Notes under the pieces: model-generated | Told to the model about the DNA's origin: nothing | Databases searched by the model: none | What the model saw: only the letters and a program-made list of their open reading frames with translations | Source: Candidatus Woesebacteria bacterium | Lineage (GTDB): Bacteria > Patescibacteriota > Microgenomatia > UBA8517 | Length of the DNA stretch: 64,000 nucleotides | Reading direction: 5' to 3' | Assembly (NCBI GenBank): GCA_016432525.1 | Contig: CP066693.1 | Coordinates: 482,732-546,731 of the forward strand | Made by a program: the position numbers and the translations under genes | Shown: positions 12,732-29,689 of the stretch, piece by piece | Layout: every line of letters begins with the position of its first letter | Position numbering within the stretch: the stretch's first letter is position 1

Positions 12732-13627
12732 ATGTTTCAATAGTTATACCGAATTGGAATGGAAGAAATCTTCTGGAAAAAAATCTTCCTAATGTTTTGG
12801 AAGCAAAAGAAAATAAAAAAAACAATATAAAAGAAATAATAATAGTCGATGATTCCTCTACCGATAGCTCAGTCGATTTCTTAAAAATAAATTTTAAGAA
12901 AAAAATAAAACTAATTGTACTTAAGACAAATAGGGGATTTGCGTCAGCAGTAAACACAGGTGTGCGTACATCTACAGGAGAATTAGTTTGTCTATTAAAC
13001 ACAGATGTAATTCCAGAAAAGAATTTCCTACAACAAGTTGTTTTAGATTTTGAAGACAAAAAAATATTTGCAGTTTCACTTCATGAAAAAGGGTTTGGTT
13101 CAGCAAAAGGAAGTTTTGTTAATGGTTTTTTTGAACATAGTGGTGAAAAAGAGCAAAATAAATTGACACAGTCCTTGTGGGCATCAGGAGGATCAGCTTG
13201 TTTCAGAAGAAATCTTTGGATCCAATTAAAAGGATTTGATGAAATACTTTTTAGCCCTTTTTATTGGGAAGATGTAGATCTAAGTTATCGTGCTCAAAAA
13301 AGAGGATATAAAGTTTTATGGGAGCCAAAAGCAAACGTTGTACACAAGCACGAATCTGTAATCAATACAAATAATTTCAAAGCTAGAAAATTAAACTTAA
13401 TTAAACAAAGAAATTACTTAATCTTTATATGGAAAAATATTACAAGTAAAGCTCTTCTTAAAAAGCATAAATTCGCACTTTTCGCTCGTATTAAAAAACA
13501 TCCAGGATACATAAGGATAGTATTTCTTGCACTTTTAAGACTTCGCCAGATTCAGAAAGCTAGAAAAATTGAAAAACAAGAAAGTTCAATTTCAGATGAA
13601 TCAATTTTTGAAAAATTCTCAAAATGA
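12728..13627 (+). CDS. GT2 family glycosyltransferase.
   Basis: VSIVIPNWNGRNLLEKNL...IIVDDSSTDSS...NRGFASAVNTGV...LNTDVIP. Confidence 0.7.
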   Translation: MNVSIVIPNWNGRNLLEKNLPNVLEAKENKKNNIKEIIIVDDSSTDSSVDFLKINFKKKIKLIVLKTNRGFASAVNTGVRTSTGELVCLLNTDVIPEKNFLQQVVLDFEDKKIFAVSLHEKGFGSAKGSFVNGFFEHSGEKEQNKLTQSLWASGGSACFRRNLWIQLKGFDEILFSPFYWEDVDLSYRAQKRGYKVLWEPKANVVHKHESVINTNNFKARKLNLIKQRNYLIFIWKNITSKALLKKHKFALFARIKKHPGYIRIVFLALLRLRQIQKARKIEKQESSISDESIFEKFSK

Positions 13628-14412
13628 TAGAGCTGTCTATAATAATTGTTAATTTTAATACAAAAAAACTAACTGTCGATTGTATTAAATCAATTAGAAA
13701 TTCAAGTCCTAATGTCAATTACGAAATTATAGTCATAGATAACGCCTCATCAGATGGATCAATAGATTCGCTAGAAAAATTAAAAATTCGCTTAATCAAA
13801 AATAAAGAAAACTTAGGTTTTGCCAAGGCCAACAATCAAGGAATAAAAATTTCAAAAGGCAAATACATACTTCTTCTGAATTCAGATACACTCGTCAAAA
13901 AAGACTCACTCGTTTCTCTTGTAGAATTTGCCAAAAACACACCAGATGCAGGAGTAATTGGCTCAAAACTTTTAAACACAGATGGAACAATTCAAAATTC
14001 AGTTTTTCGATTTCCTACAATCTGGAAATCTATAAGTCATTATTGGTTTAAAAATAATATTCTAAATAAATATTCTCCATCTACGGATATCCCAACAAAA
14101 GTAGATGCAGTTGTGGGTGCAGTATTTTTAATTACTCCAAAAGCTTTTAAGAAGGTTGGGTTTTTAGATGAAAGATATTTTATGTATTTTGAAGATATAG
14201 ATTATTGCCGTAAGATAGCCGCATCAAATCTCAAAGTTTACTATTTTCCAAAGTCTGAAATTATACACATCCATGGAGCCAGTAAAGCCAAAAACGAATA
14301 CCTAATAAAAGCCAGTAAAATTTACCATGGGGTTATCAATTACTACATAATCACCTTTATTATTAAGATTAGTCAGTTATTTGATAAAATTACTAAAGAT
14401 GAAAAACACTAA
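13624..14412 (+). CDS. GT2 family glycosyltransferase.
   Basis: LSIIIVNFNTKKLTVDCIKSI...IIVIDNASSDGS...NLGFAKANNQGI...LLLNSDTLV and GAVFLITPKAFKKVGFLDERYFMYFEDIDYC. Confidence 0.7.
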   Translation: MIELSIIIVNFNTKKLTVDCIKSIRNSSPNVNYEIIVIDNASSDGSIDSLEKLKIRLIKNKENLGFAKANNQGIKISKGKYILLLNSDTLVKKDSLVSLVEFAKNTPDAGVIGSKLLNTDGTIQNSVFRFPTIWKSISHYWFKNNILNKYSPSTDIPTKVDAVVGAVFLITPKAFKKVGFLDERYFMYFEDIDYCRKIAASNLKVYYFPKSEIIHIHGASKAKNEYLIKASKIYHGVINYYIITFIIKISQLFDKITKDEKH

Positions 14413-16102
14413 AATTTTGGCCCTCGTAGGTATAATAATATTTGCTTCGATATTGCGCTTGTATAAATTGGACAAAAATCCCCCTTCACTTTTTGGAGAC
14501 GAATTGGATTTAGGCTATCAGGCATACTCAATCTTAAAAACTGGAAGAGATTATTCTGGAAATTTTTTACCACTTCATTTCCACTCTCTTGCAGAATGGA
14601 GAACGCCTCTATATCTTTATTCAGCAGTTCCAACGGTAGCACTTTTTGGGATAACTGCCTGGGGAGTACGTTTGCCGGCTGCAATTTTTGGAATCTTAAC
14701 GATTCCACTGATTTATTTTTTATTTAAAGAACTTTCCCAAAAATTCGATTTTAAAATTAAAAACATCGAATTAATTGCAAGTTTACTTTTAGCTATTTCT
14801 CCTTGGCATATTCAATATAGTCGTGCCGGATTTGAAGTAACCCAAATGCTTTTTTTCTTATTATTAGGTTTATTTTTATTTTTCAAATCTTTTAAGGAAG
14901 GAAAATGGCTCTGGATTTCAATAATGTCGTTTTGTTTGACTCCTTACGATTACAGCACTGCCAAACTTTTTACTCCCTTTTTTTTGCTATTTTTGCTGAT
15001 AGTATTCTGGAAAGAAATAAGAAAAATTCCAAAAATTCATCTTTTAGAAGGTATAGTTGCGGGAATTTTATTTGGTGGCCCAATTGCCCTTAGTACGCTT
15101 TTTGGTGGGGGAACAGTACGCTTTAATTACATAAGTGTATTCTCAGACCCAACCATCCAAAATGAAGTGGGAGTAGCCAGACAGACAGAAGCCCATGTCA
15201 GAGGCGAATCAGGATCTGGCTTAACTCCTACGATTTTGGATAAAATATTTAACAATAAATTTAATACAATCTCAGAAGTAATAGCTCAAAATTATCTTCA
15301 ATCTTTTTCTTTTAATTTCCTTTTTGGAAAAGGAGATCCAAATCTTCGTCAATCAGCCGAAACTGGATTATTCTATAAAATCGAAGTTACATCATTTGCC
15401 GCAGGAAGCGTTTTCTTTTTCTCCCAAGTTAAATCCAAAAAACTAAAACTTTTAATACTCTTTTGGTTTTTGATTGGAGCTCTGCCAGCAGAGTTGACCC
15501 GTGATGGCGGAAATCATGCAACCCGCCTTTTTCTCACCCTTCCTTTATTTATTCTCTTAATTTCATATGGGTTAACAAAATTCCCAAAAACAGTTTTAAT
15601 TGCATACGCTCTTATACTTCTATCAATGTTCATTTCTTACGAACATTTATTTTGGACCAGATATCCACTTGATAGTGAAAGGTGGTGGCATTATGGATAC
15701 GGTGAAGCTTTTAATTTCGTCAAACAAAATGACCAAAATTACGACAAAATTATAATCTCAACACATGACGAGCCTCCTTGGATTTTCTTTGCTGGCCATT
15801 TAGAGTTTAACCCTTCTCTTTGGCAACAAAACTATCCATTTCCAAAGATTAATTTTCTAGGTTTTGGGGAAATTTCCCACATTGGTAAATACTATTTCGG
15901 TTCCCCAAAAATTAATGGCGGACTTTATGGTTGGGGAAAACTTTTAGATAGTAGAACTTTGTATCTAGCAAGTCAAAAAGAAGTAAGTATTAATTTGGTA
16001 CAAGAGCCAGAAAGAACTCCTGCGAACTTGAAAGTCATAAAGGCGATTATTTATCCTTCAGGCGAACCAGCTTTCTACATTTTTAGTGGTATTGGAAAAT
16101 GA
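14381..16102 (+). CDS. PMT_2 / ArnT-like polytopic membrane glycosyltransferase (GT-C fold, GT39/GT83-like).
   Basis: The first extracytoplasmic loop carries the catalytic DE signature (GDELDLGYQAYSILKTGRDYSGNFLP). It is followed by about 11 TM helices and a C-terminal periplasmic domain. It is a paralog of the genes at 16778, 20344, 23572, 25568 and 27205. Confidence 0.7.
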   Translation: MIKLLKMKNTKILALVGIIIFASILRLYKLDKNPPSLFGDELDLGYQAYSILKTGRDYSGNFLPLHFHSLAEWRTPLYLYSAVPTVALFGITAWGVRLPAAIFGILTIPLIYFLFKELSQKFDFKIKNIELIASLLLAISPWHIQYSRAGFEVTQMLFFLLLGLFLFFKSFKEGKWLWISIMSFCLTPYDYSTAKLFTPFFLLFLLIVFWKEIRKIPKIHLLEGIVAGILFGGPIALSTLFGGGTVRFNYISVFSDPTIQNEVGVARQTEAHVRGESGSGLTPTILDKIFNNKFNTISEVIAQNYLQSFSFNFLFGKGDPNLRQSAETGLFYKIEVTSFAAGSVFFFSQVKSKKLKLLILFWFLIGALPAELTRDGGNHATRLFLTLPLFILLISYGLTKFPKTVLIAYALILLSMFISYEHLFWTRYPLDSERWWHYGYGEAFNFVKQNDQNYDKIIISTHDEPPWIFFAGHLEFNPSLWQQNYPFPKINFLGFGEISHIGKYYFGSPKINGGLYGWGKLLDSRTLYLASQKEVSINLVQEPERTPANLKVIKAIIYPSGEPAFYIFSGIGK

Positions 16103-16785
16103 ACATTATCTGGCTTGTTTTAGGGGTTATTGGAAACCTGTGGATTTGGTTTGTATTCAAAAACAATTTTCTGTTAGGAATAGTTTTATTAATATCATCG
16201 CTTTTAGTTATAAAAAACCAAAAATCAAACAAATTCTCTCTTTTTCTAATAATCCTTTTCTTGATTATAGTTTTTTGGCAAATCAATTTAACAAAAACAA
16301 AACCTCTTCTTAAACTCACTGAAATTGAAAGAGCAAACCAAATCACACGACTAAATTCATATCCACCATATCTCGCTCGTTTTGGCCATATTCTTGAGGA
16401 AAGAAAAGAATTTTTGATACTTTATCGATTAAACGAAAATTTTTTTGAAATTATGAATCTCAACCTTTATTTTTTTGCGAACCACCCAATAGAGCGAGGA
16501 GCTATAAAAGAATTTGAAAAATTTGCATACATATCTTTACCTTTTTTCCTCTTGGGGTTACCAAAGCATTTACGCAACAAAAAAACCTTAATACTAATTT
16601 TAATAATTCCACTCATTATATTCACAATGATAGGATCAAACATTTCAATTGGACCAATTTCATTTTTTCCCTTTATTGCAAGCTCTATATATTTTGGACT
16701 TGAACAAATAAAAAACAAAAAACTTTCTTATCTATTGATAATTGTTTGGTTTTTAGTATTGCTGCAATTATTTTCATATGCTTAA
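16099..16785 (+). CDS. Hypothetical small membrane protein.
   Basis: 228 aa with 2 N-terminal and 3 C-terminal TM segments. The start overlaps the upstream PMT_2 gene by 4 nt (ATGA). No recognisable family. Confidence 0.4.
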   Translation: MNIIWLVLGVIGNLWIWFVFKNNFLLGIVLLISSLLVIKNQKSNKFSLFLIILFLIIVFWQINLTKTKPLLKLTEIERANQITRLNSYPPYLARFGHILEERKEFLILYRLNENFFEIMNLNLYFFANHPIERGAIKEFEKFAYISLPFFLLGLPKHLRNKKTLILILIIPLIIFTMIGSNISIGPISFFPFIASSIYFGLEQIKNKKLSYLLIIVWFLVLLQLFSYA

Positions 16786-18460
16786 AAAAATAATCATTAA
16801 TTCCATTCCAATTCTCTTGATCCTTATTGTCGGTATCTTTTTGTATTTCTACAAATTAGAAAAAATACCAAACGGATTTTATATAGACGAAGCTCTACCG
16901 TCTTATAATGCTTACTCGCTATTACTAACTGGAAAAGATGAATTTGGAAAAACTTGGCCTTTAGTGCTTAGATTTTATGGATCATATAACCCATTTTTGT
17001 ATACCTACTTAACTATTTTTCCGATCAAGTTTCTAGGGCTTACAATATTTGCTGCAAGAAGTGTTTCAGCTCTGTCTGGACTTTTAGCTGTTTTAGTCTT
17101 TTATGGCATTTTGCGATCAATTGGCTTAATAAAAAGTCGTATCGTTATATTTATCTCAACATTTTTAATGCTTATTTCCCCATGGTTAATTCTTCACAGT
17201 AGAGTAGGATACGAAGTATCTTTAGCCTTTCTGTTCCTCTTGTTGGGAGTATGGTTTTTATGGTTGAGTATCAAAAACCAGCCGATCTTCTTTATTTTGG
17301 GAATTTTGTTTTTTGATATATCAACCTATGCTGCCTATGCAGAACGATTCATTGCACCGCTAATTCTAATAAGCTTTCTTATCGTTTTCAGAAAAAAAAT
17401 ATTAAGTAAAAATTTTAGAAAGTACTTAATTTGGGGAATTTTAATTGGATTTTTCTTCGAAATGCCAAACGTGTGGCTGATCACAACTCCTGCCTTTTTT
17501 CCCAAAGGAGATCTTTTCTCGTCAGATATTTTAATCGCTCAAACAGAAAAAATCCTTCTGCTTCCAAAAATTATAAAAATAATTCTCGCCTTTTTAAGAG
17601 AATTTTTCTCTCAATACTTCTTGTATTTTTCTCCTAATTCTCTTTTTTATAAGGCCGATCATGATCTGCAAAGATCAATTCCTGAAATTTCGGTATTATA
17701 TTCCTGGATGATAGTTCCTTACTTATTTGGTCTCTATGACCTTTGGAAGAAAAGAAAGAAAAATATTTCAAAATACATATTTCTTTTGCTTTTAATATCG
17801 CCTATACCAGCAAGTTTAACAAAGGATCCATTCTCGTCACACAGGGCCCTACCTCTTTTGTTACCAATAATGCTAGTTGTCGCGTTTGGTGTCGATTTCA
17901 TAGTTAAAAAAAGAAAAAATCTTTCTATAGTGGTCTTGTTTTTGTTATGTTTTATATCTTTAGTTTTTTTATATAGATCATATTTTGTCTTATTGCCTTC
18001 TTTACGCGCCAAAGATTGGCAATTTGGATTCGAGCAATTAGCGACAATAGTAAATTCAAATCAAAATGAAAAATTTGTTTTTGATCAATCCAGAAATAAA
18101 CCTGGGTATATCAATATAGCTTTTTTTCTTAAATATTCCCCGCAAAAGTTACAAAATTTATCACCCTCGACTCTTACGGACCATTATTTCACCGGAGAAA
18201 AATTTGATATTCAATATACTATTAAAAATATTGAGTTTCGCCCAATTGTTTGGGAAAAAGATATTTATAAAAATCAAATATTGGTAGGAGATGAGCTTAC
18301 ATTTTCAGAATCACAAGTAAAAGAGCATTTTCTCACGAAATCTTTTGAAATCAGGGATCCAATAAATCAAATTATCTTTTTAGGTTATAAAACTAATCCA
18401 ACAAAAAAATGTTACAGCGAAAAAACAAAAAATATATTATGCTCTGAATCATCAAAGTAG
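16778..18460 (+). CDS. PMT_2 / ArnT-like polytopic membrane glycosyltransferase (GT-C).
   Basis: YIDEALPSYNAYSLLLTGKDEFGKTWPLV carries the DE loop motif. It is multi-TM with a C-terminal soluble domain. Confidence 0.65.
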   Translation: MLKKIIINSIPILLILIVGIFLYFYKLEKIPNGFYIDEALPSYNAYSLLLTGKDEFGKTWPLVLRFYGSYNPFLYTYLTIFPIKFLGLTIFAARSVSALSGLLAVLVFYGILRSIGLIKSRIVIFISTFLMLISPWLILHSRVGYEVSLAFLFLLLGVWFLWLSIKNQPIFFILGILFFDISTYAAYAERFIAPLILISFLIVFRKKILSKNFRKYLIWGILIGFFFEMPNVWLITTPAFFPKGDLFSSDILIAQTEKILLLPKIIKIILAFLREFFSQYFLYFSPNSLFYKADHDLQRSIPEISVLYSWMIVPYLFGLYDLWKKRKKNISKYIFLLLLISPIPASLTKDPFSSHRALPLLLPIMLVVAFGVDFIVKKRKNLSIVVLFLLCFISLVFLYRSYFVLLPSLRAKDWQFGFEQLATIVNSNQNEKFVFDQSRNKPGYINIAFFLKYSPQKLQNLSPSTLTDHYFTGEKFDIQYTIKNIEFRPIVWEKDIYKNQILVGDELTFSESQVKEHFLTKSFEIRDPINQIIFLGYKTNPTKKCYSEKTKNILCSESSK

Positions 18461-18493
18461 TTGTTATAATATATAAAGACAATCATAAAGAAT
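18461..18493 (+). promoter_or_regulatory. Possible internal promoter upstream of 18494..19735.
   Basis: The TTGTTATAATATAT box (TATAAT at 18465-18470) lies 24 nt before the ATG, in a 33-bp gap inside the long plus-strand gene train. Low specificity in AT-rich DNA. Confidence 0.2.
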
Positions 18494-19735
18494 ATGCCAA
18501 AATTCCAAAAAAAAATATTTCTCATTCTGATTTTAAGTTTTATATTTAGACTTATTCTAATTCCAGTAGCTCACCACGGAGATTTAAACAACAACATTTC
18601 CTGGGGAAACGAAGCTCTTGTAAGAGGGTTTATCAATTTCTATGAGAGTAAAAATTGGCCTTATTCAGTCCCTAATCAACCTCCTCTGTACATTTTTCTT
18701 TTTACGATTAGTTCCTTTCTTTATAAATATATAGGAACTATTTCGTTTTTCTTAAACGATAAAATTGGGATTTTTCCATCGAGCTTTATTTGGTTTTGGC
18801 AAAATTCTGGGATGGATATTCTAGTTAAACTTCCTGGTATTCTTGCTGATCTTGTAATTGGCTATTTAATTTACAAAAAAACCAATCTGAAACTAACTAT
18901 TTTATGGCTTTTTAATCCCATCACTTGGTATCTCTCGTCAATCTGGGGCCAAACAGATTCAGTTGTGAATTTGTTTGGCTTAATTTCAATATTTTTTCTA
19001 CTTAAAAGAGATTTAATTAAATTCTCAATTTTCTATACTATTTCACTTCTGTTTAAACCTTCGCTTTTAATTTTATCACCAGTTTTATTAGTAATTGCAA
19101 TCATTCAAAAATACAAAAAACAAATCTGGATTAAATCAATAATTTATTCATCAATAATCATTATTCTATCAAGTATTCTTTTCCATCCTAAATTTGATTT
19201 GCCAATTTGGTTATTTAATCTCTATAAAGATAGATTCATTTCAGGAGAAATAGGGGATCTACAAGCAAATGCTTTCAATTTTTGGTGGTTAATAGATAGC
19301 AAAAAAGTTTTAGATTCGACAATTTATCTTGGATTACCAGCAAGAGTTTTGGGCTATCTGATAACAATAGCTGCAATTATTCCCAATTTATTTTTTCTAA
19401 AAAAGAAATTTTTACCAAAGAATATTTTTATACTCCTTGCATTATCTGCTCTTATCACCTTTCTTTTTATGACCAGAATTCACGAAAGATATTTGTATCC
19501 ATTTTTTCCACTTGCAACAATCTCTCTCGCATTCTTTAACTGGCTTACTATTCCTTATATAATTCTTTCAATAACTTTTTTCCTAAACCTATATCATCTT
19601 TTCTACGCTCCCTCAATTCCAGTTTTGGAAAGTTTATATAGCTTTCAATTCTTCCCAGTAATCTTATCTTTAATAAACATCCTAACTTTTGGATATTTGT
19701 TATTTAAACTATCAAAAATAAAAACTAACTTGTAA
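18494..19735 (+). CDS. Polytopic membrane protein, GT-C-like (possibly a DUF2029/GT87- or PIG-M-like mannosyltransferase).
   Basis: 413 aa that are almost entirely TM helices. The N-terminal region is RLILIPVAHHGDLNNNISWGN...NQPPLYIFLF. It is preceded by a TATAAT-like box at 18465-18470. Confidence 0.4.
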   Translation: MPKFQKKIFLILILSFIFRLILIPVAHHGDLNNNISWGNEALVRGFINFYESKNWPYSVPNQPPLYIFLFTISSFLYKYIGTISFFLNDKIGIFPSSFIWFWQNSGMDILVKLPGILADLVIGYLIYKKTNLKLTILWLFNPITWYLSSIWGQTDSVVNLFGLISIFFLLKRDLIKFSIFYTISLLFKPSLLILSPVLLVIAIIQKYKKQIWIKSIIYSSIIIILSSILFHPKFDLPIWLFNLYKDRFISGEIGDLQANAFNFWWLIDSKKVLDSTIYLGLPARVLGYLITIAAIIPNLFFLKKKFLPKNIFILLALSALITFLFMTRIHERYLYPFFPLATISLAFFNWLTIPYIILSITFFLNLYHLFYAPSIPVLESLYSFQFFPVILSLINILTFGYLLFKLSKIKTNL

Positions 19736-19769
19736 GATTTGATTTTCTAGGCTTATACTAAAATTATAG

Positions 19770-20324
19770 ATGACACCAAATCCTTCTGATATTCCGCCTT
19801 TATTAACAATCACAAATCCAGTTACCTATTTAAAAAGTTGGTGGAAAAAAGTTATGTCAAACGAAGGAGTTGATCTAAGGTTAAAAATCAAGCCATTAAC
19901 AGCAATTGGCATTGCATCATTAATTGCGGTAAGTGGGTTTAGCCTAGGTCGCATTGGAAATTTTGCAAATACTCAAGTTGCAAAATATATTCCACAACTA
20001 GCAGTTACCCCAACTCCATCTCCTAACCCGTGGGTTAATGGCGCTTATCTTGGAGTATTGCAAAGAGGAAGCAATGGAAATCTTTACCTTATTACTAAAT
20101 CAGCTGAAGCGCTGCTTTTAGATTATCCTCAAAATAGTAAACTTCCTCAATATATTGGCAAAAAAATTTTAGCTTCAGGAAAATTTAACACCCAGACAAA
20201 AGTTTTATTTGTTGAAGATGCAACCGCCCTTGAAATAATCTTGCAAACCCAACCAGTCCCGACTTCTTCACCATCTCCAATGCCATTACAAACCCCCACT
20301 CCAGAGATCATTCCTTCAATGTAA
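19770..20324 (+). CDS. Hypothetical membrane-anchored protein with Pro/Thr/Ser-rich linkers.
   Basis: 184 aa with one TM helix (LTAIGIASLIAVSGFSLG). It has a TPTPSPNP linker and a C-terminal PVPTSSPSPMPLQTPTPEIIPS tail. Its GC content is locally higher than in the neighbouring genes. Confidence 0.5.
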   Translation: MTPNPSDIPPLLTITNPVTYLKSWWKKVMSNEGVDLRLKIKPLTAIGIASLIAVSGFSLGRIGNFANTQVAKYIPQLAVTPTPSPNPWVNGAYLGVLQRGSNGNLYLITKSAEALLLDYPQNSKLPQYIGKKILASGKFNTQTKVLFVEDATALEIILQTQPVPTSSPSPMPLQTPTPEIIPSM

Positions 20325-20343
20325 TTTAGGGTATAATTAATCT

Positions 20344-21957
20344 ATGAATAGATGGCTACTTTCGTCTATAATAATTCTTGCCTTCCTAGTTAGAATTATA
20401 GGAATTTCAAGCCATCCAGCAGGCTTTACTCCAGATGAAGCTTCGTTCGGCTACGATGCATATTCAATTTTAAAGACTGAAAGAGACCAGTGGGGTAATA
20501 CTCTTCCAATGTCATTTAAATCCTTTGGAGATTACAAACTTCCTGTTTATACATATCTTACAATTCCTTCTGTTGCCATTTTTGGCCTCAATGAATTTGC
20601 CACTCGTCTTCCAAACGCACTTATTGGAACACTGGCAGTATTAGCAACTTATTTTTTAGCGCTCAATTTTACAAGAAATAGATTGCTTGCATTAATCTCA
20701 GCCATAATGTTAGCAATCTCCCCTTGGCATGTAGCTCTTAGTAGAGGAGCCTTTGAAGCAAATTTAACAACTTTTTTTCTTACAGCAGGAATTTTATTTT
20801 TTCTAAAAGCACCCAAAAATGAAAAATTATTTTCTTTATCAGCTTTGTTTTTTGGAATTAATTTGTTCACATATCACTCAGCAAGGCTCTTAACGCCTTT
20901 AATAATATTTTTTTTAATTTATGAAAATTTCAAATCGATCAAAAAATTAAATTTTACAAAAGCTATTTCCTCTATAATTTTTTTAGTCTTTTTCTTTGCC
21001 GCATTTTTTAATTACACAGCAGGGGGAGGTGCTAGGATTTCATCTTCTTCAATTTTTTCACTCTCAGAAAATGTTCTGACGGATCGATATAAGTTAACTC
21101 AAACTGGAATGCCAATTTTTCTTGCAAAAATATTTAACAACAAAATTACCTACATAAGCCAAATTTTTGTTAAAAATTATCTGTCTTATTTTTCTCCTCA
21201 ATTCTTATTCACAAACGGGGCAGGGGAGGGAACTTATGGAATGACACCGGGAGTTGGGATTCTATATCTTTTTGAAATTATTTTTTTAATAAGTTTTATT
21301 TTTTCAAAACGCTTAAAAGAATTAAAACTCCTGATTTTTTGGATACTCGTGTCCCCCATCCCTGCTGCACTTTCTTTAGGTCCAGGTTATGCGGCAAACA
21401 GATCTGCTTTTATGATGCCAGCAGTTCAGATAATGTTAGCAACTGGTGCTCTAATCTTATTTGAAAAATTCAAAAAACATGTTAATTTTAAATTTTTAAT
21501 TTCATTGTTTGTTATCTTTTATTCCTTATCTCTTATTAATTACCTTCAAATCTTTTGGTTCAATCAACCAGCAACTCAGTCAAAGTCAATGATCTTTGGG
21601 CCTAAACAAATTATGGAAATTATAAATAATAAAAGTTTCGACAAAATAATCATGAGTAAAAAAATTTCAGAACCTCAAATTTTTGTAGCCTTCTATCAAA
21701 AATTAGATCCTAATATCTACCAAAAATTTTCCCAAAACTGGGATTTTGAAAGCAAAGGATTCTCTTGGGTCGACCAGATAGGTGAGTACAATTTGCAAAA
21801 TTTTACATTCAAAAATCTTGACTTTAATATTGACTCTAAAAACAAAAACTCTCTTTTGATAGGTGATCCATCAGATTTTCCAGAAAATTTAAAGCCAGAT
21901 TTTGTTATAAACTATCCCGACAATTCTATAGCCTATTATTTAGTTAAGACTCAATGA
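20344..21957 (+). CDS. PMT_2 / ArnT-like polytopic membrane glycosyltransferase (GT-C).
   Basis: FTPDEASFGYDAYSILKTERDQWGNTLP carries the DE motif. It is a close paralog of 23572, 25568 and 27205. Confidence 0.7.
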   Translation: MNRWLLSSIIILAFLVRIIGISSHPAGFTPDEASFGYDAYSILKTERDQWGNTLPMSFKSFGDYKLPVYTYLTIPSVAIFGLNEFATRLPNALIGTLAVLATYFLALNFTRNRLLALISAIMLAISPWHVALSRGAFEANLTTFFLTAGILFFLKAPKNEKLFSLSALFFGINLFTYHSARLLTPLIIFFLIYENFKSIKKLNFTKAISSIIFLVFFFAAFFNYTAGGGARISSSSIFSLSENVLTDRYKLTQTGMPIFLAKIFNNKITYISQIFVKNYLSYFSPQFLFTNGAGEGTYGMTPGVGILYLFEIIFLISFIFSKRLKELKLLIFWILVSPIPAALSLGPGYAANRSAFMMPAVQIMLATGALILFEKFKKHVNFKFLISLFVIFYSLSLINYLQIFWFNQPATQSKSMIFGPKQIMEIINNKSFDKIIMSKKISEPQIFVAFYQKLDPNIYQKFSQNWDFESKGFSWVDQIGEYNLQNFTFKNLDFNIDSKNKNSLLIGDPSDFPENLKPDFVINYPDNSIAYYLVKTQ

Positions 21958-23582
21958 AAAAGATTCTTGTAATTTTAATTATTTTAGTTATAACAATCCC
22001 CTCTTTTTTCAGAATGCTAAAGCCGGGGATTTTCTCAACACAGGATTTCCATTTGTTTAGATTAGCCGAATTTGATAAATGTATTTCTGATTTTCAAATC
22101 CCCTGTCGCTGGGCTCCAGATGCAGGAGCTGGGTTTGGAGAACCGGTATTCAATTTCTATGGCCAGCTAAGCTATACCATAGGCGAGTCGTTTCATTTAG
22201 CGGGATTTTCAAAAATTGACTCAATTAAAATTTTATTTATTCTTTCTCTGGCTCTTTCAGCAATTTCAATGTTTGCTCTCGCCAAAAAAATCTGGGGAGA
22301 TAATTTATCAGCACTTCTATCGAGCGTTATTTACATTTATGCTCCTTATAGAGCTGTAGATATTTGGGTTCGTGGTGCGCTTCCAGAGGCATTTTGCTTT
22401 ATTTTGTTTCCGTTAGTTATCCTACAAATAGAAAATTACTTGGAAAAACAAAAAAAGAAAAATCTCTTATTGTTTGGTTTATTTTTTGCGATTCTTATTT
22501 TAACTCACAATTTATCAGTAATATTATTCTTACCTTTCTTGGTAATCTGGACTATTTATAGATTATTTTTTTATAAAAAACCAAAATTACTAATCAACTT
22601 GGCTTTCGCAGCAGTTTTTTCGTTTTTAATATCTTCATTTTATTTACTTCCGGTCATATTTGAATCAAAATTTATCAATCTTCAATCAACCACATTAGGT
22701 TTTTTTGATTGGCGAGCTCATTTTGTAACTTTAAATCAACTTTTTATTTCCAGATTTTGGGGATATGGAGCATCTGTCTGGGGACCAGAAGACGGCTTAA
22801 GTTTATCCGTAGGTCAAATTCAATGGACAATTCCAATAATAATATTAGCTTTTGTTTTGTTCAAATTATTTAAATCCAAATCTTTGAATGAAAAAGATGC
22901 AAATTTTTTAGTAATATTCTCAGTAGGAGTTCTTGCCCTATTTCTCACGCACAACAAATCAACCTTTTTATGGAATCATCTTTCCTTTTTATCTTTTATC
23001 CAATTCCCTTGGAGATTTTTAGGCCTAGCTGTTTTTTCTTTTTCTCTCGCCTCGGGAGAATTATTAAAATATATAAAAATATTTAAAATACCAATTTACC
23101 TCATAGTAATCTTTACTGTAATTTTGCTAAATTTCCAGTTTTTCAGAGAAGACATTTGGTTTAATGTTAAAGATACTGATACAGAAATTGGTTCTTCCTG
23201 GACTGAGTCGAAATTCGCTTCTCTTCCTGATTACTGGCCAAAATATGGACCTCTTCCAACAAAAGAAGCTCCATCTGAAACCGATGACATTAAATTAATT
23301 TCAAAAAAGAGCAGTACTCAAACCTTTGAGTTAAAAAATATAAATAAACAATTAGAATTTCCAATTAGTTATTTTCCAGGTTGGCAAATAAGCTACAATG
23401 GAAAAAATATTAACCCATCCCCTTCTCAAAACGGCCTAATTTCAGCATATATTCCTGATTCGCCCACTAAAGAAGTGTTTTTGACCTTCAAAAACACTTC
23501 TGTTCGAACAATTGGAAATTTAATTAGTTTAATCTCAATTATTTCCTGGATAGTTATATTTATCATTAAATATGAAGCTTAA
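21954..23582 (+). CDS. Polytopic membrane protein, GT-C-like (FPWRFL-motif family). It is a paralog of the 5'-partial gene at 1..1482.
   Basis: 542 aa. Motifs shared with 1..1482 are listed under that gene. It has about 12 TM helices and a C-terminal soluble region. Confidence 0.55.
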   Translation: MKKILVILIILVITIPSFFRMLKPGIFSTQDFHLFRLAEFDKCISDFQIPCRWAPDAGAGFGEPVFNFYGQLSYTIGESFHLAGFSKIDSIKILFILSLALSAISMFALAKKIWGDNLSALLSSVIYIYAPYRAVDIWVRGALPEAFCFILFPLVILQIENYLEKQKKKNLLLFGLFFAILILTHNLSVILFLPFLVIWTIYRLFFYKKPKLLINLAFAAVFSFLISSFYLLPVIFESKFINLQSTTLGFFDWRAHFVTLNQLFISRFWGYGASVWGPEDGLSLSVGQIQWTIPIIILAFVLFKLFKSKSLNEKDANFLVIFSVGVLALFLTHNKSTFLWNHLSFLSFIQFPWRFLGLAVFSFSLASGELLKYIKIFKIPIYLIVIFTVILLNFQFFREDIWFNVKDTDTEIGSSWTESKFASLPDYWPKYGPLPTKEAPSETDDIKLISKKSSTQTFELKNINKQLEFPISYFPGWQISYNGKNINPSPSQNGLISAYIPDSPTKEVFLTFKNTSVRTIGNLISLISIISWIVIFIIKYEA

Positions 23583-25242
23583 AAACATTCCTGTCCCTTT
23601 AATAATTATAATTTTTTTTGGCGCTATTCTTCGCTTTACAATGCTTTCTCAAATGCCACCTTCGCTTAATTGGGACGAAGTATCCCATGGCTACAATGCT
23701 TATTCAATCCTAAAAACTGGTCATGATGAATGGGGTAAATTTTTTCCAATCACAAACTTTAGAGCCTACGGAGATTACCCTCTTCCTCTAAATCTTTATC
23801 TTACGATTCCATTTATAAAAACCCTAGGTCTAAATGAATTTGCAATTCGCGCTCCTCACGCACTTTTAGGAGTAGGTACTATTATTGCCACTTATTTTTT
23901 AGCATACGGGGTAACAAAGAATAAAAAAATCTCTCTTATAGCTTCATTTTTAGCAAGTATTGACCCTTGGCTTTTGTTTCCATCGCGTGCAGTTTTCCAA
24001 TCAAATCTTTCAGTTTTTTTTCTAACCTCAGCTCTCGCTGCATTTGTAAATAGAGAAAAGAATAAGTTTCTTTTGCCTCTCGCATCTCTTTTTTTGGGAT
24101 TAACACTTTTCTCCTACCATTCAACTCGAATTTTATCTCCTCTTCTATTAATATCTTTACTATTTATATATCGGGAAGAGTTTCTAAAACATCTAAAAAA
24201 AATTACACCTAATTTCTTGTTATCAATTGTTTTTCTAATTGTCTTTTTCGCCCCTTTACCTTTTATTTTTTTAAACCCTGATGCTAGAGCTCGTTCAAAC
24301 GTTGTTTTTTTGCTAGATCAAGGTGCAGTTAATCAAATCGAAAATTTAAGAAACAATTCGGGTCAATCTTATAAAAACTTAATCTACAATAAATTTACCT
24401 ATTTTACTGTTAAGTTTCTCCAAAATTATATAGATTATTTCTCTCCCCAATTTTTATTTTTAAATGGAGGAACACAGTATCAGTTTAGTGTCCCAAACCA
24501 AGGTCTTTTGTATTTAATAAATCTTCCCTTTTTTTATTTTGGTTTATTTTTGTGTCTAAAAAATATTAAGAAAAAAGAATACCAACTTCTTTTAATTTGG
24601 CTTATTCTCGCCCCAATTCCAGCTGCAATTACTCAAGATAAATTTGCCGTAATTCGCGCAACTACAATGCTCCCTTTGCCTGAAATTTTAGTAGGCATAG
24701 GAATCATCAAAATTTTGGAAAAATTAAAGAACAATAGAGAAATGGCTATTCTGATGTTTGTAATTGCAATGATCCTTTCTTTAGAAAACTACATAGATGT
24801 TTACGCAAAAAGTTACAGGCAAAATTATTCCTGGTCTTGGCAATATGGTTACAAACAAATAGTTGGATATATCCAGGAAAATTACGAAAACTACGACAAA
24901 ATCATAATTACCAAAAAATATGGAGAGCCTCACGAATACTTTCTCTTTTTTCTCCAATACAATCCTGCTAAATTTATAAATGACAAAAATTTAATCCGCT
25001 ACGGAAAGTCAAACTGGTTTTGGGTCGATCGTTTCGACAAATTTTATTTTGTAAACGATTGGCAAATTCCACATAATAATTCAAATTTTATCTTAGAAAG
25101 TAAAAAAGAAGAAATAAACTGTGATAAAAATATCAAATGTCTACTTATATCATCGCCAGAAAATCATCCAGTAGGCTGGAAACTTTTAAAAATCATAAAT
25201 TTCTTAGATAATAGTAAAGCCTTTGAAATATGGAAGAATTAA
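23572..25242 (+). CDS. PMT_2 / ArnT-like polytopic membrane glycosyltransferase (GT-C).
   Basis: LNWDEVSHGYNAYSILKTGHDEWGKFFP. Confidence 0.7.
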   Translation: MKLKNIPVPLIIIIFFGAILRFTMLSQMPPSLNWDEVSHGYNAYSILKTGHDEWGKFFPITNFRAYGDYPLPLNLYLTIPFIKTLGLNEFAIRAPHALLGVGTIIATYFLAYGVTKNKKISLIASFLASIDPWLLFPSRAVFQSNLSVFFLTSALAAFVNREKNKFLLPLASLFLGLTLFSYHSTRILSPLLLISLLFIYREEFLKHLKKITPNFLLSIVFLIVFFAPLPFIFLNPDARARSNVVFLLDQGAVNQIENLRNNSGQSYKNLIYNKFTYFTVKFLQNYIDYFSPQFLFLNGGTQYQFSVPNQGLLYLINLPFFYFGLFLCLKNIKKKEYQLLLIWLILAPIPAAITQDKFAVIRATTMLPLPEILVGIGIIKILEKLKNNREMAILMFVIAMILSLENYIDVYAKSYRQNYSWSWQYGYKQIVGYIQENYENYDKIIITKKYGEPHEYFLFFLQYNPAKFINDKNLIRYGKSNWFWVDRFDKFYFVNDWQIPHNNSNFILESKKEEINCDKNIKCLLISSPENHPVGWKLLKIINFLDNSKAFEIWKN

Positions 25243-25571
25243 ACCTAAAATGCCCAACATGTCATGTGGATGTTCGTCAAACCGATTTTTTTTGTTATAA
25301 CTGTGGCAAAAAATTGAAATCAAAACCACTTTCAACTTCCATAACAACACAAGCCCTTATTTACTTAGGAAGTTTTCTTCTTCCTCCAATGGGAATAATT
25401 TGGGGAATTAAATATTTGAGACAGGAGAATAGTCAATCGAAAATAGTTGGTATGATTGCAATTTTATTAACTATCATATCTCTAATTTTAACCATTATTT
25501 TTACAATTAATTTTGTAAACAGTTTAAATAGTCAAATAAACTCACAATTGCAAAACTTTGGTGGATTATGA
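25230..25571 (+). CDS. Small zinc-ribbon membrane protein (hypothetical).
   Basis: 113 aa. It has an N-terminal CPTC-x14-CYNC four-Cys motif followed by two TM helices. It overlaps both neighbouring PMT_2 genes by a few nt. Confidence 0.45.
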   Translation: MEELNLKCPTCHVDVRQTDFFCYNCGKKLKSKPLSTSITTQALIYLGSFLLPPMGIIWGIKYLRQENSQSKIVGMIAILLTIISLILTIIFTINFVNSLNSQINSQLQNFGGL

Positions 25572-27208
25572 AACTAAAAAATTATTTAGTGCTATTTTTA
25601 ATTCTAGCATTAGCCTTATTTTTAAGACTTTATCATCTCGGATCAAATCCTCCACATCTTACCCCAGACGAGGCAAGCTTAGGTTTCAATGCTTATTCGA
25701 TTTTAAAAACTGGACGGGACGAATATGGAAAATTCGCACCTTTAATTTTCAAATCCTTTGGAGATTTCAAACCTGGGTTGTATGTGTATACGGCAATTCC
25801 ATCAATTGCAGTTTTTGGTCTTAGTGAATTTTCAGTACGCCTCCCATCGGTAATTGCAGGAGTTGTCGCAGTTATTCTTATTTATTTAATATGCAAAAAT
25901 TTATTTGATAATAAATTCGCCCTAATTGCAAGTTTTTTTTTAAGCGTTTGTCCATGGCATATTTACTTCTCAAGAGGAGCATGGGAAATAAATTTATCAC
26001 TTACATTGACTCTTGCAGGAATTTACTTTTTTCTAAAATCTTTTAAAAATCAAAAACTGCTAATTTTGTCCGCTGTTTTCTTTGCTTCGACTCTGCTTAC
26101 TTATCAAGGAGCAAAAATTTCAACATTTGCAGTGTTGTTAGCTTTGTTAGTTTCTTATCATAAAGAAGTTTTTAAATTCAACAAAAAAATAGTTGTAATA
26201 TCTACGATTTTAGCAATCACAATTTCAATTCCTATTGTTACAAGCCTTTTCAATGGGGAATTGGGGAGAGCCTCGGTATTCAGCGTTTTTTCTTATCCAA
26301 GACCACCGGATTATTTGTTAGGCCAGCTTTCTCAAGGCAACGAAAAAGCTGGAAGTATAAGCTATTTTATTTTCCATTCAGAAGCTCTAAATTTCGCACG
26401 TGGTATATTAGGCCGATATTTCAACCATTTTTCAGGACAATTTTTATTTTTTGAAGGTGATTTTCAAAATTCTCGTCATTCAGTGCCAGGTATGGGAGTT
26501 CTTCTTCAATTTGATTTAATTTTAATTTTATTGGGTCTAATATTTTTTATTCGTTCAAAAAAGAAAACCCAGAAAATATTTTTTCTTTTATGGCTTGCTC
26601 TTGCTCCAATTGCATCCAGTATAACCAAAGATTCTGTTCACGCTGTTAGGTCATACAATATGCTTATTCCATTAGTAATTCTTGAAACCGCAGGTTCACT
26701 TTTAATTTTTAAAAACTACAAAAAAATAAAATTATTCATACCGATTTTGATTTTTCTTTACTTGGCTAATTATATCTATTTTCTAGATGCTTATTTCATT
26801 CACCTTCCAGCTCACAACGCAGAATATTGGGAATATGGATATAAACAAATCGTTGAAACTGTAATGCCAATTAAATCAAATTATAAAAAAGTCTTGATTC
26901 CACAATCCTACGCTCAGCCATATATTTATTTCCTATTCTTTACTAAATATGATCCAAAAACTTACCAACAAAACTCTATGCTAAAAGAAAGTATCAGTGG
27001 TGACGTGGGCATTGTTGAAAAATTGGATAATATAAATTTTGTTAATTTTGATTGGCCAAAGAGTCAAAAAGAAACAAATACTTTATTCGTAGCTACAAAT
27101 GAGCAAATAAATTTAGACGAAATTCAAAAAGGAAAATTTAATATCATAAAAGAGATTTACTACCCCAAAAGCAAAAACTTGGCATTTAGAATTTTCGAAA
27201 GCAAATGA
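25568..27208 (+). CDS. PMT_2 / ArnT-like polytopic membrane glycosyltransferase (GT-C).
   Basis: LTPDEASLGFNAYSILKTGRDEYGKFAP. Confidence 0.7.
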   Translation: MKLKNYLVLFLILALALFLRLYHLGSNPPHLTPDEASLGFNAYSILKTGRDEYGKFAPLIFKSFGDFKPGLYVYTAIPSIAVFGLSEFSVRLPSVIAGVVAVILIYLICKNLFDNKFALIASFFLSVCPWHIYFSRGAWEINLSLTLTLAGIYFFLKSFKNQKLLILSAVFFASTLLTYQGAKISTFAVLLALLVSYHKEVFKFNKKIVVISTILAITISIPIVTSLFNGELGRASVFSVFSYPRPPDYLLGQLSQGNEKAGSISYFIFHSEALNFARGILGRYFNHFSGQFLFFEGDFQNSRHSVPGMGVLLQFDLILILLGLIFFIRSKKKTQKIFFLLWLALAPIASSITKDSVHAVRSYNMLIPLVILETAGSLLIFKNYKKIKLFIPILIFLYLANYIYFLDAYFIHLPAHNAEYWEYGYKQIVETVMPIKSNYKKVLIPQSYAQPYIYFLFFTKYDPKTYQQNSMLKESISGDVGIVEKLDNINFVNFDWPKSQKETNTLFVATNEQINLDEIQKGKFNIIKEIYYPKSKNLAFRIFESK

Positions 27209-28818
27209 AAAAACAAAAAATAATATTAATCCTAATTGTAATTTTGGCCTTTTGCCTTAGATTTTATAAATTAAATTCCTATCCTGCTTTAAATGCGGAC
27301 GAGGCAAGTATTGGTTATGATGCCTATTCTCTAATAAAAACAGGTCGTGATCAACATGGAAATTCCTGGCCTCTTCAGTTTCAATCTTTTAATGATTACA
27401 AGCCAGGCCTTTATGTATATATCGTTTTACCATTTGTAAAATTCTTATCTCTTAACGAATGGTCTATCCGAATCCCGTCTGCATTTTTAGGAGTTGCAAC
27501 TGTATATATTATTTATCTTTTAATAAAAGAATTATTTAATGATGAAAAATTCGCTCTTATTGGATCTTTTCTACTTGCAATTTCTCCTTGGCACTTACAT
27601 TTCTCAAGAAGCGGATGGGAAGTAAATATCGCAACATTTTTTATAACTTTAGGATTATTGTTTTTCTTTAAAGCTATCAAAAAGCAAAAATTTAGTTCCT
27701 TTTTCTTTTCTGTTTTGTTCTTTGTGCTATCTATGTATACTTATCATTCCGCCAGAATAGTAGTTCCGTTTCTGGGAATTGGTTTATTTTATTTTTACTT
27801 AAAAGATCTTAAAAAAAATCTAAAATTAGTAAGTATTTCAGTAATAATTTTCGGGTTACTAATAATTCCAATAACAAACAAAGATGCTCTTTCAAGGGCT
27901 GGTGGTGTAAGTATTTTTTCAGACAAAGGGATTATCTCAGGAATTAATGAACAAAGAGGGGAAGGGGCAAATTCTACTCTTACAAAGATTTTACACAACA
28001 AAGTTATAAATTACTCACTAATTTTTGCAGATAACTATTCCAAACATTTCTGGGGAGAATTTCTGTTTCTTTCAGGTGATGTAATTCAAAGAAATAGAGT
28101 TCCAGAAACAGGTCAGCTATATCTTTTTGAAATAATAACTTTGTCCGTAGGTATATATTTCATTATTAAAAAAACAAACAAAGAATGGGGGTTAATTATA
28201 TTCTGGTTAATTATTTCTCCGGCTGCAGCTGCTCTTACGTTTCAATCACCTCACGCTCTACGTGCTCATAATATGGTCATACCATTAACAATTATTAGCT
28301 CATATGGTTTGATGAAAATCCTAAATTTGCTAAAAAATCTGAAAATTAAGAACATATTTTTATTAGGAAACTTTCTTATCTTAATTTTTATTTCATGGTG
28401 TGTTGCGCGCTATCTTCATGAATACTATATTCACATGTCAAAGGAATATCCCTACTCATCTCAATATGGAGTCAAAGAAATGGTCTCATATTTATCCCAA
28501 AATCAAGGTAGTTTCCAGAAAATTTTTGTTACTGACAGATATGACCAACCTTACATTCTCTATCTTTTTTACACAAAAACTGACCCATCTTGGTTTCAAA
28601 AAAATCATAACTTAACCGCTCCGGATAAATTTGGATTTTCAACAGTTCGTGATGTAGCTTCTATTCATTTTGAGTCCATTGATTTTGAAAAACTCAAACA
28701 AAATTACCCAAATTCGCTTATAATAGGCGATACCAAAGAGATCCCCAAAGAAGCTAACATAATTAAAAAAATATATGGAGCTAATGGATTTCTATATTTT
28801 GAGGTAGTAAAAAATTAA
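27205..28818 (+). CDS. PMT_2 / ArnT-like polytopic membrane glycosyltransferase (GT-C).
   Basis: LNADEASIGYDAYSLIKTGRDQHGNSWP. It overlaps the upstream gene by 4 nt. Confidence 0.7.
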   Translation: MKKQKIILILIVILAFCLRFYKLNSYPALNADEASIGYDAYSLIKTGRDQHGNSWPLQFQSFNDYKPGLYVYIVLPFVKFLSLNEWSIRIPSAFLGVATVYIIYLLIKELFNDEKFALIGSFLLAISPWHLHFSRSGWEVNIATFFITLGLLFFFKAIKKQKFSSFFFSVLFFVLSMYTYHSARIVVPFLGIGLFYFYLKDLKKNLKLVSISVIIFGLLIIPITNKDALSRAGGVSIFSDKGIISGINEQRGEGANSTLTKILHNKVINYSLIFADNYSKHFWGEFLFLSGDVIQRNRVPETGQLYLFEIITLSVGIYFIIKKTNKEWGLIIFWLIISPAAAALTFQSPHALRAHNMVIPLTIISSYGLMKILNLLKNLKIKNIFLLGNFLILIFISWCVARYLHEYYIHMSKEYPYSSQYGVKEMVSYLSQNQGSFQKIFVTDRYDQPYILYLFYTKTDPSWFQKNHNLTAPDKFGFSTVRDVASIHFESIDFEKLKQNYPNSLIIGDTKEIPKEANIIKKIYGANGFLYFEVVKN

Positions 28819-29685: not shown

Positions 29686-29689
29686 GAGT

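Follow-up and report, generated by a model that had tools for sequence, protein, structure and literature searches.

In monoderm bacteria, membrane-embedded glycosyltransferases of the GT-C class that belong to the PMT_2 and YfhO families glycosylate teichoic acids and wall polysaccharides, acting with a GT-A enzyme and a GtrA- or Wzx-type flippase (PMC8035078, PMC11127046). In the known multi-component systems of this kind, such as CsbB–GtcA–YfhO, GtlA/GtlB, CsdAB/CD/EF and GacI/J/K/L, and in the Gtr-type three-component systems, there is one GT-C per GT-A, and it decorates a polymer made elsewhere. For the Pmt branch of the class, PMC8698208 presents an Asp-Glu (DE) motif in loop 1 as the hallmark of Pmt homologues, and it relays that mutation of D55, K85 or K203 abolishes the function of ArnT from C. 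metallidurans (CmArnT). Here we describe a 64-kb stretch of the genome of a Candidatus Woesebacteria bacterium (contig CP066693.1, positions 482,732 to 546,731; hereafter the window, in whose coordinates all features are given), with 31% G+C and almost entirely coding on the + strand, which encodes six paralogous DE-motif GT-C proteins in a conserved operon of glycosylation genes. Judged from sequence, these six very probably are active, polyprenyl-phosphate-sugar-dependent GT-C transferases forming ancient and non-redundant orthogroups. The reading that we favour as a whole, that a conserved envelope glycoconjugate is put together by an extracytoplasmic assembly line of non-redundant enzymes, we consider probable.

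The six genes, here termed paralogs A–F, lie on the + strand at 14381–16102 (A, 573 residues from a TTG codon), 16778–18460 (B, 560 residues), 20344–21957 (C, 537 residues), 23572–25242 (D, 556 residues), 25568–27208 (E, 546 residues) and 27205–28818 (F, 537 residues), exactly where a preliminary description of this DNA had placed them. The region is spanned by the NCBI accessions QQG47043–QQG47066, and its gene order is reproduced in an independent Logan assembly of the same organism (L083). All six products are polytopic, of 537–573 residues, and bear 30–40 residues from the N-terminus a motif that reads DE..(G/S)(Y/F).AYS(I/L)(L/I)(K/L)T(G/E).D..G...P across the copies: DELDLGYQAYSILKTGRDYSGNFLP in A (14498–14572), DEALPSYNAYSLLLTGKDEFGKTWP in B (16886–16960), DEASFGYDAYSILKTERDQWGNTLP in C (20434–20508), DEVSHGYNAYSILKTGHDEWGKFFP in D (23674–23748), DEASLGFNAYSILKTGRDEYGKFAP in E (25667–25741) and DEASIGYDAYSLIKTGRDQHGNSWP in F (27298–27372). 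The loop consensus proposed earlier was correct, individual copies deviating from it at one to four positions; the R[LI]P element said to follow it occurs in four of the six copies but reads RSV and RAP in the other two, with the arginine itself invariant. In the six-way alignment (residue numbering throughout is that of the 25568 protein, paralog E) the invariant positions are D34, E35, A42, Y43, S44, T48, D51, G54, P58, R91, P129, W130, S135 and R136. All 15 paralog pairs align over nearly their full length with 27–36% identity (BLASTP E 2.5e-32 to 1e-91), which establishes true homology rather than a chance motif and equally shows that these genes are not near-identical recent duplicates.

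Paralog B is the most divergent copy and is hypothetical in the NCBI annotation (QQG47043): it has no NCBIfam match and no Pfam match even at E<=5 (negative Pfam statements on the window, here and below, cover open reading frames of at least 100 residues), so that its 27–30% full-length identity to the other five (BLASTP E 2.5e-32 to 1e-46) is its sole tie to the family. Four of the six are labelled by NCBI as “GT39 family” or “phospholipid carrier-dependent glycosyltransferase”. Read from the TTG codon, paralog A shares 32 bp with the preceding GT2 gene, and the protein beginning there is absent from the public protein collection; the ATG six codons on (14399, MKNTKIL...) is the likelier true start.

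Five of the six pass a Pfam gathering threshold within the GT-C clan CL0111. Matches to PMT_2 are seen in A (1.8e-9), C (5.7e-10), E and F (3.5e-13), and matches to PMT in A (4.2e-7), C (1.7e-10), D (1.8e-7) and F (6.1e-11). An AlphaFold2 model of paralog E, computed from an alignment of 63 homologues and the five paralogs (pLDDT 89, pTM 0.90), places the first transmembrane (TM) helix at residues 2–21, followed by a loop helix at 33–48 that starts at D34–E35, a beta hairpin, a second helix at 71–83, about 11 more TM helices, a long extracytoplasmic insert at 231–300 and a C-terminal alpha/beta domain at 418–546. The protein thus has the features of a GT-C fold, namely a polytopic domain, a conserved N-terminal GT-C module and a helix-containing first extracytoplasmic loop. 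As in the PMT/ArnT type, D34–E35 falls in extracytoplasmic loop 1, collinear with D31–E32 of E. coli ArnT; the N-terminus of the latter in strain K-12 (...FEKP...FGANNFGVRAG) and the paralog sequence HLTPDEASLGFNAYSILKTGRDEYGKFAPLIFKSFGDFKPG...FGLSEFSVRLP show the same order of elements. The catalytic role earlier ascribed to the pair by analogy is in keeping with its position, since in ArnT and Pmt, too, such a pair opens the helix of the first extracytoplasmic loop, and mutation of D55 in CmArnT is given in PMC8698208 as abolishing function. By manual alignment, the column of CmArnT K85 and S. coelicolor Pmt H159 (which that paper equates) holds Lys or Arg in 300 of 326 relatives, which is ArnT-like and differs from the His of Pmt.

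To place these genes in their wider lineage, one genome per species was scanned for relatives, giving at least 599 matches, and 80 loci were kept for comparison, whose record titles name Woese-, Shapiro-, Collier-, Ames- and Gottesmanbacteria along with unclassified Patescibacteria. These loci hold 373 family members, with a mode of 5–6 per ~21 kb, and the 326 near-full-length sequences among them separate into six clades, each with exactly one of the window paralogs and mostly one member per locus: the A clade comprises 38 sequences from 36 loci, B 24 sequences, C 46 sequences from 45 loci, D 61 sequences from 60 loci (present in 34 of the 38 loci with full flanks) and F 94 sequences from 72 loci, some lineages having duplicated it further. 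Of the 69 loci informative on gene order, 66 follow that of the window. At least four members occur in 33 of the 38 full-flank loci, the commonest array being A-C-D-E-F (11 loci), with a nearly universal D-E-F core. The D-E pair is invariant not only in all six copies but also in all 326 relatives, and D51 and R91 persist in 325 of the 326. Moreover, orthologues in other Woesebacteria and Microgenomates are 50–58% identical to the window proteins, vs ~32% for the paralogs within the genome. The six clades, the colinearity and the greater closeness of orthologues than of paralogs therefore show that what had been presented as an expansion and near-tandem duplication in this genome is instead a group of six ancient orthogroups that keep a colinear order across Microgenomates. 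The family at large is abundant: among 1.84 billion cluster representatives searched with a profile, 6,277 are relatives at E<=1e-30.

Two observations on the sampled loci deserve mention. Some Gottesmanbacteria-like loci (L056, L062, L064, L068, L069 and L074) have ~3–6 copies mostly nearest to paralog F (or E), at 29–38% identity, in place of the A-C-D-E-F array; these could be a lineage-specific re-expansion or copies too diverged for orthology assignment. Furthermore, L001, L002, L009, L010, L013, L036 and others come from records titled, for example, “uncultured Gammaproteobacteria bacterium”, “Clostridia bacterium” or “Bacteroidota bacterium”, yet bear the Microgenomates-type operon; some are complete chromosomes of 0.6–0.8 Mb, and the taxonomic labels of these metagenome-assembled genomes look wrong.

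The preliminary description had located the divergence of the paralogs mainly in their C-terminal domains. Divergence does rise toward the C-terminus, mean identity among the six falling from 46% at residues 1–70 to 22% at residues 471–546, but the loop at residues 231–300 is equally orthogroup-specific. The ratio of within- to between-orthogroup identity is lowest in the N-terminal catalytic module (1.16–1.24) and reaches 1.62 in the 231–300 loop and 1.54–1.64 in the C-terminal domain (residues 416–546), the latter being conserved inside orthogroups and not between them. The ratio of nonsynonymous to synonymous substitution (dN/dS), taken from a single orthologue pair rather than from the paralogs because synonymous sites are saturated at ~30% amino-acid identity, is 0.09 overall, 0.053 in the 231–300 loop and 0.055 in the C-terminal domain. 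The six orthogroups are under strong purifying selection, and regions that, like this loop and the C-terminal domain, have diverged between orthogroups while remaining constrained within them show the pattern expected of specificity determinants.

The six genes do not stand alone. From 12728 to 35507 the genes are separated by 4–35 bp overlaps or by gaps of at most 34 bp; the single larger overlap (143 bp at 30561) is explained by a mis-called start. A scan of 12500–32400 for promoters and terminators gave 82 hits vs 86.7 expected and 8 vs 10.7 expected from shuffled sequence, respectively, and is thus silent on operon boundaries. Across the loci the conserved array reads, in its first part, GT2, GT2, A, sometimes a 4-TM protein with B, then the 18494 gene, C, sometimes the 21954 gene, D, E and F; after F follow GT2, GT4, the 30561 gene, a Wzx-type flippase, the 33075 gene and GT4. 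At its head in the window are two soluble GT2 genes on the + strand (12728–13627 and 13624–14412; Pfam Glycos_transf_2 4e-22 and 8e-28), whose orthologues precede that of the 14381 gene in many loci. The 4-TM protein (16099–16785, +, 228 residues) has no Pfam match and no assigned family; it travels with paralog B, tblastn finding it in 5 of the 80 loci and, in 4 of these, adjoining a 16778 orthologue.

Three partner genes escaped the preliminary description as GT-C-type enzymes, as did the lipid-linked sugar donor synthases of the same island. The first (18494–19735, +, 413 residues, ~9 TM helices, hypothetical at NCBI) is retained in most loci, with the A orthologue on one side and the C orthologue on the other; the profile built from 29 of its orthologues matches yeast ALG6 (6snh, E 2.5e-8) and GPI mannosyltransferase 1 (E 7.9e-8), GPI standing for glycosylphosphatidylinositol, and an invariant HERY aligns with the HEK of ALG6, identifying it as ALG6/PIG-M-like. 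The second (21954–23582, +, 542 residues) is YfhO-like (Pfam YfhO 1.6e-9, 37.1 bits vs a cut-off of 28.5), with FPWRFL at residue 351, and an orthologue occupies the same position in roughly a third to a half of the 80 loci. The third (30561–31838, +) is PIG-V-like, 13 of 31 orthologues matching Pfam Mannosyl_trans2 (PF04188; best E 4e-13); its true start probably lies near 30669, ~36 codons later, as called in L083 (389 residues). Neither the 18494 nor the 30561 protein has a Pfam match of its own. Between F and the PIG-V-like gene, and directly after F in nearly all loci, come a soluble GT2 (28819–29685, +) and a GT4 (29651–30703, +), both recognised by Pfam. Downstream follow the Wzx-type flippase (31835–33094, +; Pfam Polysacc_synt_3 2.8e-15), likewise conserved in the loci, a GT2 domain of the DPMS/ArnC/GtrB kind (33075–33851, +) and a second GT4 (33848–34972, +; Pfam 4.8e-37). 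The 33075 product has as its best PDB sequence matches the dolichyl-phosphate-mannose synthase of P. furiosus (5mlz, 1e-10), ArnC and GtrB. No other gene of the array is as conserved (up to 74% identity), and by homology its product is a candidate polyprenyl-phosphate sugar synthase.

As the preliminary description stated, the 8.5-kb run of paralogs C–F (20344–28818) is broken only by the FPWRFL-bearing 21954 gene and a zinc-ribbon gene. The zinc-ribbon gene (25230–25571, +, 113 residues, 2 TM helices, weak matches to Pfam DZR and Zn_Ribbon_1) is present in L083, whereas tblastn of the 80 loci came back empty. The same search was empty for a membrane-anchored protein of 184 residues just upstream of paralog C (19770–20324, +; no Pfam match). 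With no match in the 80 loci, both are lineage-specific inserts and excluded from the conserved system. The 19770 protein has Pro/Ser/Thr-rich stretches, TPTPSPNP and PVPTSSPSPMPLQTPTPE, and resembles an O-glycosylation acceptor. A DUF5667 protein with an N-terminal anchor is encoded at 34998–35507 (+), in the same position in at least 3 related loci, and another at 41041–41532 (+), each after a glycosyltransferase block.

Elsewhere in the 64-kb island, which has ~15 GT-C-type genes in all and makes up 7% of the ~0.92-Mb genome, there are further members of the class and two more putative donor synthases. The preliminary description counted three more members of the family, at 38960, 42506 and 61966; these do match PMT_2, but without the loop consensus and as members of separate subfamilies, so that its “nine paralogs” are a mix of three PMT_2 subfamilies. 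The second subfamily consists of the genes at 38960–41023 (+, 687 residues, Pfam PMT_2 6.9e-13, first loop FDAINHLSRGQAYL) and 42506–44605 (+, 699 residues, Pfam PMT_2 5.5e-8, first loop WDEPYHFNRGQAYL), which are 38% identical to each other. Neither has a BLAST match to the six at E<=1e-3. The 42506 protein aligns to the six-paralog profile with only 62% probability in hhalign. The third is represented by the gene at 61966–64000 (+, Pfam PMT_2 9.9e-14), which runs past the window end and has weak BLAST matches to three of the six (best E 7e-8). It carries a C-terminal carbohydrate-binding module (CBM), with CBM_4_9 at E 2.5e-5 and 25.1 bits vs a cut-off of 25.9, which suggests that its acceptor, like that of Emb/AftD and GT136 enzymes, is a polysaccharide. 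Two further polyprenyl-phosphate glycosyltransferases, each a GT2 domain with 2 C-terminal TM helices, are assigned by homology: an ArnC/GtrB/PgfS-type enzyme at 44586–45557 (−), with 33% full-length identity to E. coli ArnC (E 3e-50) and NCBIfam matches to ArnC (3.5e-53) and PgfS (6e-43) that do not reach the equivalog cut-offs, and a GtrB/PgfS-type enzyme at 60947–61945 (−; NCBIfam PgfS 3.4e-28). The latter is divergently paired with the 61966 gene.

The remaining GT-C-type genes of the window are a YfhO-like gene at 8213, a weakly PMT-like one at 10543 and another YfhO-like gene truncated by the start of the window, listed as 79–1482 (+), whose frame runs open as far as base 1 and whose product shares FPWRFL and 34% identity with that of 21954–23582. 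Besides the operonic flippase, a second Wzx-type Polysacc_synt_3 protein is encoded at 1452 (the two being 1452 and 31835), and no open reading frame has a GtrA, SMR or MATE Pfam match. Two polytopic proteins, at 2908–4629 (+, 573 residues) and 53527–55188 (+, 553 residues), have neither Pfam nor NCBIfam matches. The latter shows QQDEWHG right after its first TM helix, recalling a GT-C acidic motif; hhalign of the six-paralog profile against either gave a probability below 1%, and we do not count them among the GT-C proteins. Lastly, two NodU/CmcH-type carbamoyltransferase paralogs, 32% identical (49978–53523, +), and an ornithine/aspartate carbamoyltransferase (56232–57149, −) hint at carbamoylated sugars.

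The mechanism that we propose for these components is as follows. Each of the six would span the cytoplasmic membrane with ~12 TM helices, its active site facing outward, and the Asp-Glu pair that is invariant at the start of the first loop helix would serve as a catalytic or acceptor-activating dyad. The donor would be a polyprenyl-phosphate sugar, made on the cytoplasmic face by the 33075, 44586 and 60947 enzymes and then flipped outward. In a first stage the cytoplasmic GT2 and GT4 enzymes would assemble a lipid-linked oligosaccharide, which Wzx would move to the outer face in a second; in a third, each GT-C would contribute a residue or linkage of its own on the extracytoplasmic side and so extend or decorate one conserved cell-surface glycoconjugate, which may be a lipoglycan, a wall polymer or the glycan of a glycoprotein. 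Acceptor specificity would reside in the 231–300 loop and the ~130-residue C-terminal alpha/beta domain. In this scheme we infer the identities of donor and acceptor, the stepwise order and the service of all components to one product; that the six paralogs act step by step in one line toward a single glycoconjugate has, in our estimate, an even chance of being right.

Several points weigh against the assembly-line reading or soften its basis. The pattern used to collect the 80 loci derives from the loop motif itself, so that one member per locus was ascertained by the motif. The six-clade tree of the 326 sequences is a neighbour-joining tree without bootstrap support, the dN/dS values come from one close orthologue pair (88% amino-acid identity) and the structural model covers one of the six copies. 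The equivalence of D34/E35 to ArnT D55 is suggested at the level of motif order and secondary structure, because profile alignments stop short of the DE loop: family profiles against PDB sequences give marginal matches (ArnT E 0.0045–0.025, STT3 0.012) that do not reach it, and a local hmmsearch against E. coli ArnT aligned only residues 75–175. All six fall far below the cut-offs of the curated NCBIfam equivalogs Pmt, ArnT, Agl23 and LA_3751, with best scores of 18.9–20.1 bits vs 800 for bacterial Pmt (NF058602), 15.8 bits (the 20344 protein only) vs 567 for ArnT (NF009784) and 59.3 bits (E 3.3e-16, residues 8–215 only) vs 126.25 for Agl23 (TIGR03663). From these weak structural links and sub-threshold scores it follows that the six constitute a distinct subfamily within PMT_2/GT-C and are not orthologues of ArnT, Pmt or Agl23. 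Finally, the window lacks any recognisable initiating phosphoglycosyltransferase, GtrA-type flippase, polymerase or ligase, and the island has three candidate donor synthases to its ~15 GT-C genes.

Among characterised enzymes, one close in architecture is ArnT (GT83; 5EZM/5F15), which likewise has ~550 residues, with a small periplasmic alpha/beta domain appended to the TM domain at its C-terminal end, and which shows the same N-terminal succession of P-D-E at the loop helix, G-D, a basic residue and Pro before TM2, and FG...F.VR; an ArnC-like donor synthase is also found in the island. However, identity to ArnT is ~11–12%, there are six specialised paralogs vs one enzyme, and no ArnA/B/D/E/F was recognised among window open reading frames of at least 100 residues. 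Patescibacteria are described as monoderm and devoid of lipopolysaccharide, and lipid A is therefore an unlikely acceptor.

The multi-component systems with which we opened are among the closest functional precedents, in that the window encodes homologues of each component type: GT-A synthases, Wzx-type proteins as putative flippases, and PMT_2/YfhO GT-Cs. Their membrane-anchored GT-A also has predicted counterparts here, in the 44586 and 60947 proteins with their 2 C-terminal TM helices and in the 33075 protein inside the operon. They differ in that here ~9 GT-Cs of four classes accompany one DPMS-like synthase per operon, with two synthases elsewhere in the island, and in that no GtrA-type flippase was found in the window. 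This arrangement points to stepwise assembly over the addition of a single side chain. A similar use of paralogs is seen in embCAB and the Aft and Mpt enzymes of Corynebacteriales, where tandem paralogous GT-Cs of one operon act on distinct acceptors to build an extracytoplasmic polymer from polyprenyl-phosphate sugars; AftA, AftB, AftD and EmbA are among the structural matches, and the 61966 protein has a CBM as Emb and AftD do. In contrast to these enzymes, the six have neither Pfam Arabinose_trans nor AftA (AftA_N) matches nor C-terminal CBMs, are half the size of Emb, belong to another phylum and number six copies rather than three, conserved as six orthogroups.

The ALG (ALG3/9/12, ALG6/8/10) and GPI (PIG-M/V/B/Z) pathways of the endoplasmic reticulum (ER) also deploy a paralogous GT-C series, each enzyme adding one residue from dolichyl-phosphate mannose or glucose to a flipped glycan, and the operon has ALG6/PIG-M-like and PIG-V-like enzymes, a DPMS-like synthase and a flippase. 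Unlike those pathways, it is bacterial and operonic, the six bear a PMT/ArnT-type DE signature instead of ALG-type motifs, and no oligosaccharyltransferase (STT3/PglB/AglB) was recognised in the window. One could go further and picture the ~20-gene operon (12728–34972) as a bacterial counterpart of the ER-lumenal ALG/GPI line, in which at least nine GT-Cs of four classes (six ArnT/PMT-, one ALG6/PIG-M-, one PIG-V- and one YfhO-like), fed by the DPMS-like synthase, would act stepwise on a flipped glycan to yield an unknown envelope lipoglycan or wall polymer, lineage-defining and probably essential in Microgenomates; we advance this tentatively and as rather an outside prospect.

Of the alternatives to an assembly line, the one that survives best is that the six are protein O-glycosyltransferases of the type of actinobacterial Pmt, fungal Pmt1/2/4 or metazoan TMTC1–4, each serving different Ser/Thr residues of secreted or surface proteins such as S-layer proteins, pili or lipoproteins. 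It draws on the Pfam PMT (PF02366) matches of four of the six copies, on the loop-1 DE pair, a Pmt hallmark according to PMC8698208, and on the Pro/Ser/Thr-rich membrane-anchored protein encoded directly upstream of paralog C at 19770–20324. The eukaryotic PMT and TMTC families likewise have several specialised paralogs, but the characterised bacterial Pmt systems, to our knowledge, use a single enzyme. Scores of 19–20 bits vs the cut-off of 800 for the NCBIfam Pmt equivalog, the absence of a MIR domain and the Lys/Arg in place of the Pmt His set the six apart from the GT39 Pmt enzymes, and the Pro/Ser/Thr-rich candidate substrate is not conserved in the 80 loci. An operon with Wzx, soluble GT2 and GT4 enzymes and ALG6-, PIG-V- and YfhO-like GT-Cs, with a CBM-bearing GT-C nearby, has the character of glycan assembly, accessory features of the Pmt type are missing, and we judge protein O-glycosylation unlikely.

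Less likely still is that some of the paralogs are lipid-linked sugar flippases or scramblases like Agl23, or non-catalytic partners in hetero-oligomers as in Pmt1–Pmt2 and EmbA–EmbB. The best curated family for four of the six is indeed TIGR03663, “flippase activity-associated protein Agl23” (E down to 3e-16), and the Agl23 of Haloarcula is a putative hexose-P-dolichol flippase that compensates for deletion of rft1 in yeast and, in liposomes, moves M5GN2-PP-Dol across the membrane (PMC11182771). The want of a GtrA-type flippase for polyprenyl-phosphate sugars in the window would leave room for such a role, and the translational coupling of adjoining genes by 4-bp overlaps would suit complex formation. 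However, the Agl23 scores of 25–59 bits vs a cut-off of 126 concern the N-terminal half only, and two Wzx-type flippases are already at hand in the window. The D-E pair, D51 and R91 are, moreover, invariant in all six orthogroups (325–326 of 326), which is not expected of non-catalytic subunits. As for a recent lineage-specific tandem expansion under diversifying selection, varying surface glycans against phages or hosts, the near-tandem placement on one strand and the additional paralog-F-like copies of Gottesmanbacteria-like L056, L062, L068, L069 and L074 may speak for it, but it is contradicted by the 27–36% identity between paralogs vs 50–58% to orthologues elsewhere, by six clades with one member per locus and colinear order in 66 of 69 loci, and by a dN/dS of 0.09 that is lowest in the putative specificity regions, and we reject it as very improbable.

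The favoured assembly-line reading thus concerns enzymes of a class already known, as the GT39 labels attest, deployed in a conserved multi-GT-C operon that appears undescribed in the literature searched. That literature yielded neither experimental work on these proteins nor a description of the six-orthogroup operon, of its ALG6-, PIG-V- and YfhO-like partners or of its phylogenetic spread, although absence there is no proof. Since the enzymes belong to a known superfamily and already bear the annotation “GT39 family”, the surprise is moderate.

The significance lies rather in what the operon implies for these organisms. A tiny ~0.92-Mb genome of the Patescibacteria (the candidate phyla radiation, CPR) gives 64 kb, or 7%, to glycosylation, and the retention of the operon across Woese-, Shapiro-, Collier-, Ames- and Gottesmanbacteria points to a major uncharacterised envelope glycoconjugate in these uncultivated bacteria, which is likely to be important for host attachment, phage recognition and cell integrity. 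The targets gained for its study are six orthogroups with candidate specificity regions, a candidate donor synthase and names for the hitherto “hypothetical” products of 16778 and 18494. Should the ALG/GPI-like version prove true, the affinities to Agl23, ALG6 and PIG-M/V might bear on the origin of the archaeal and eukaryotic pathways. For the family itself, the six orthogroups offer a compact natural system in which to follow the evolution of GT-C acceptor specificity.

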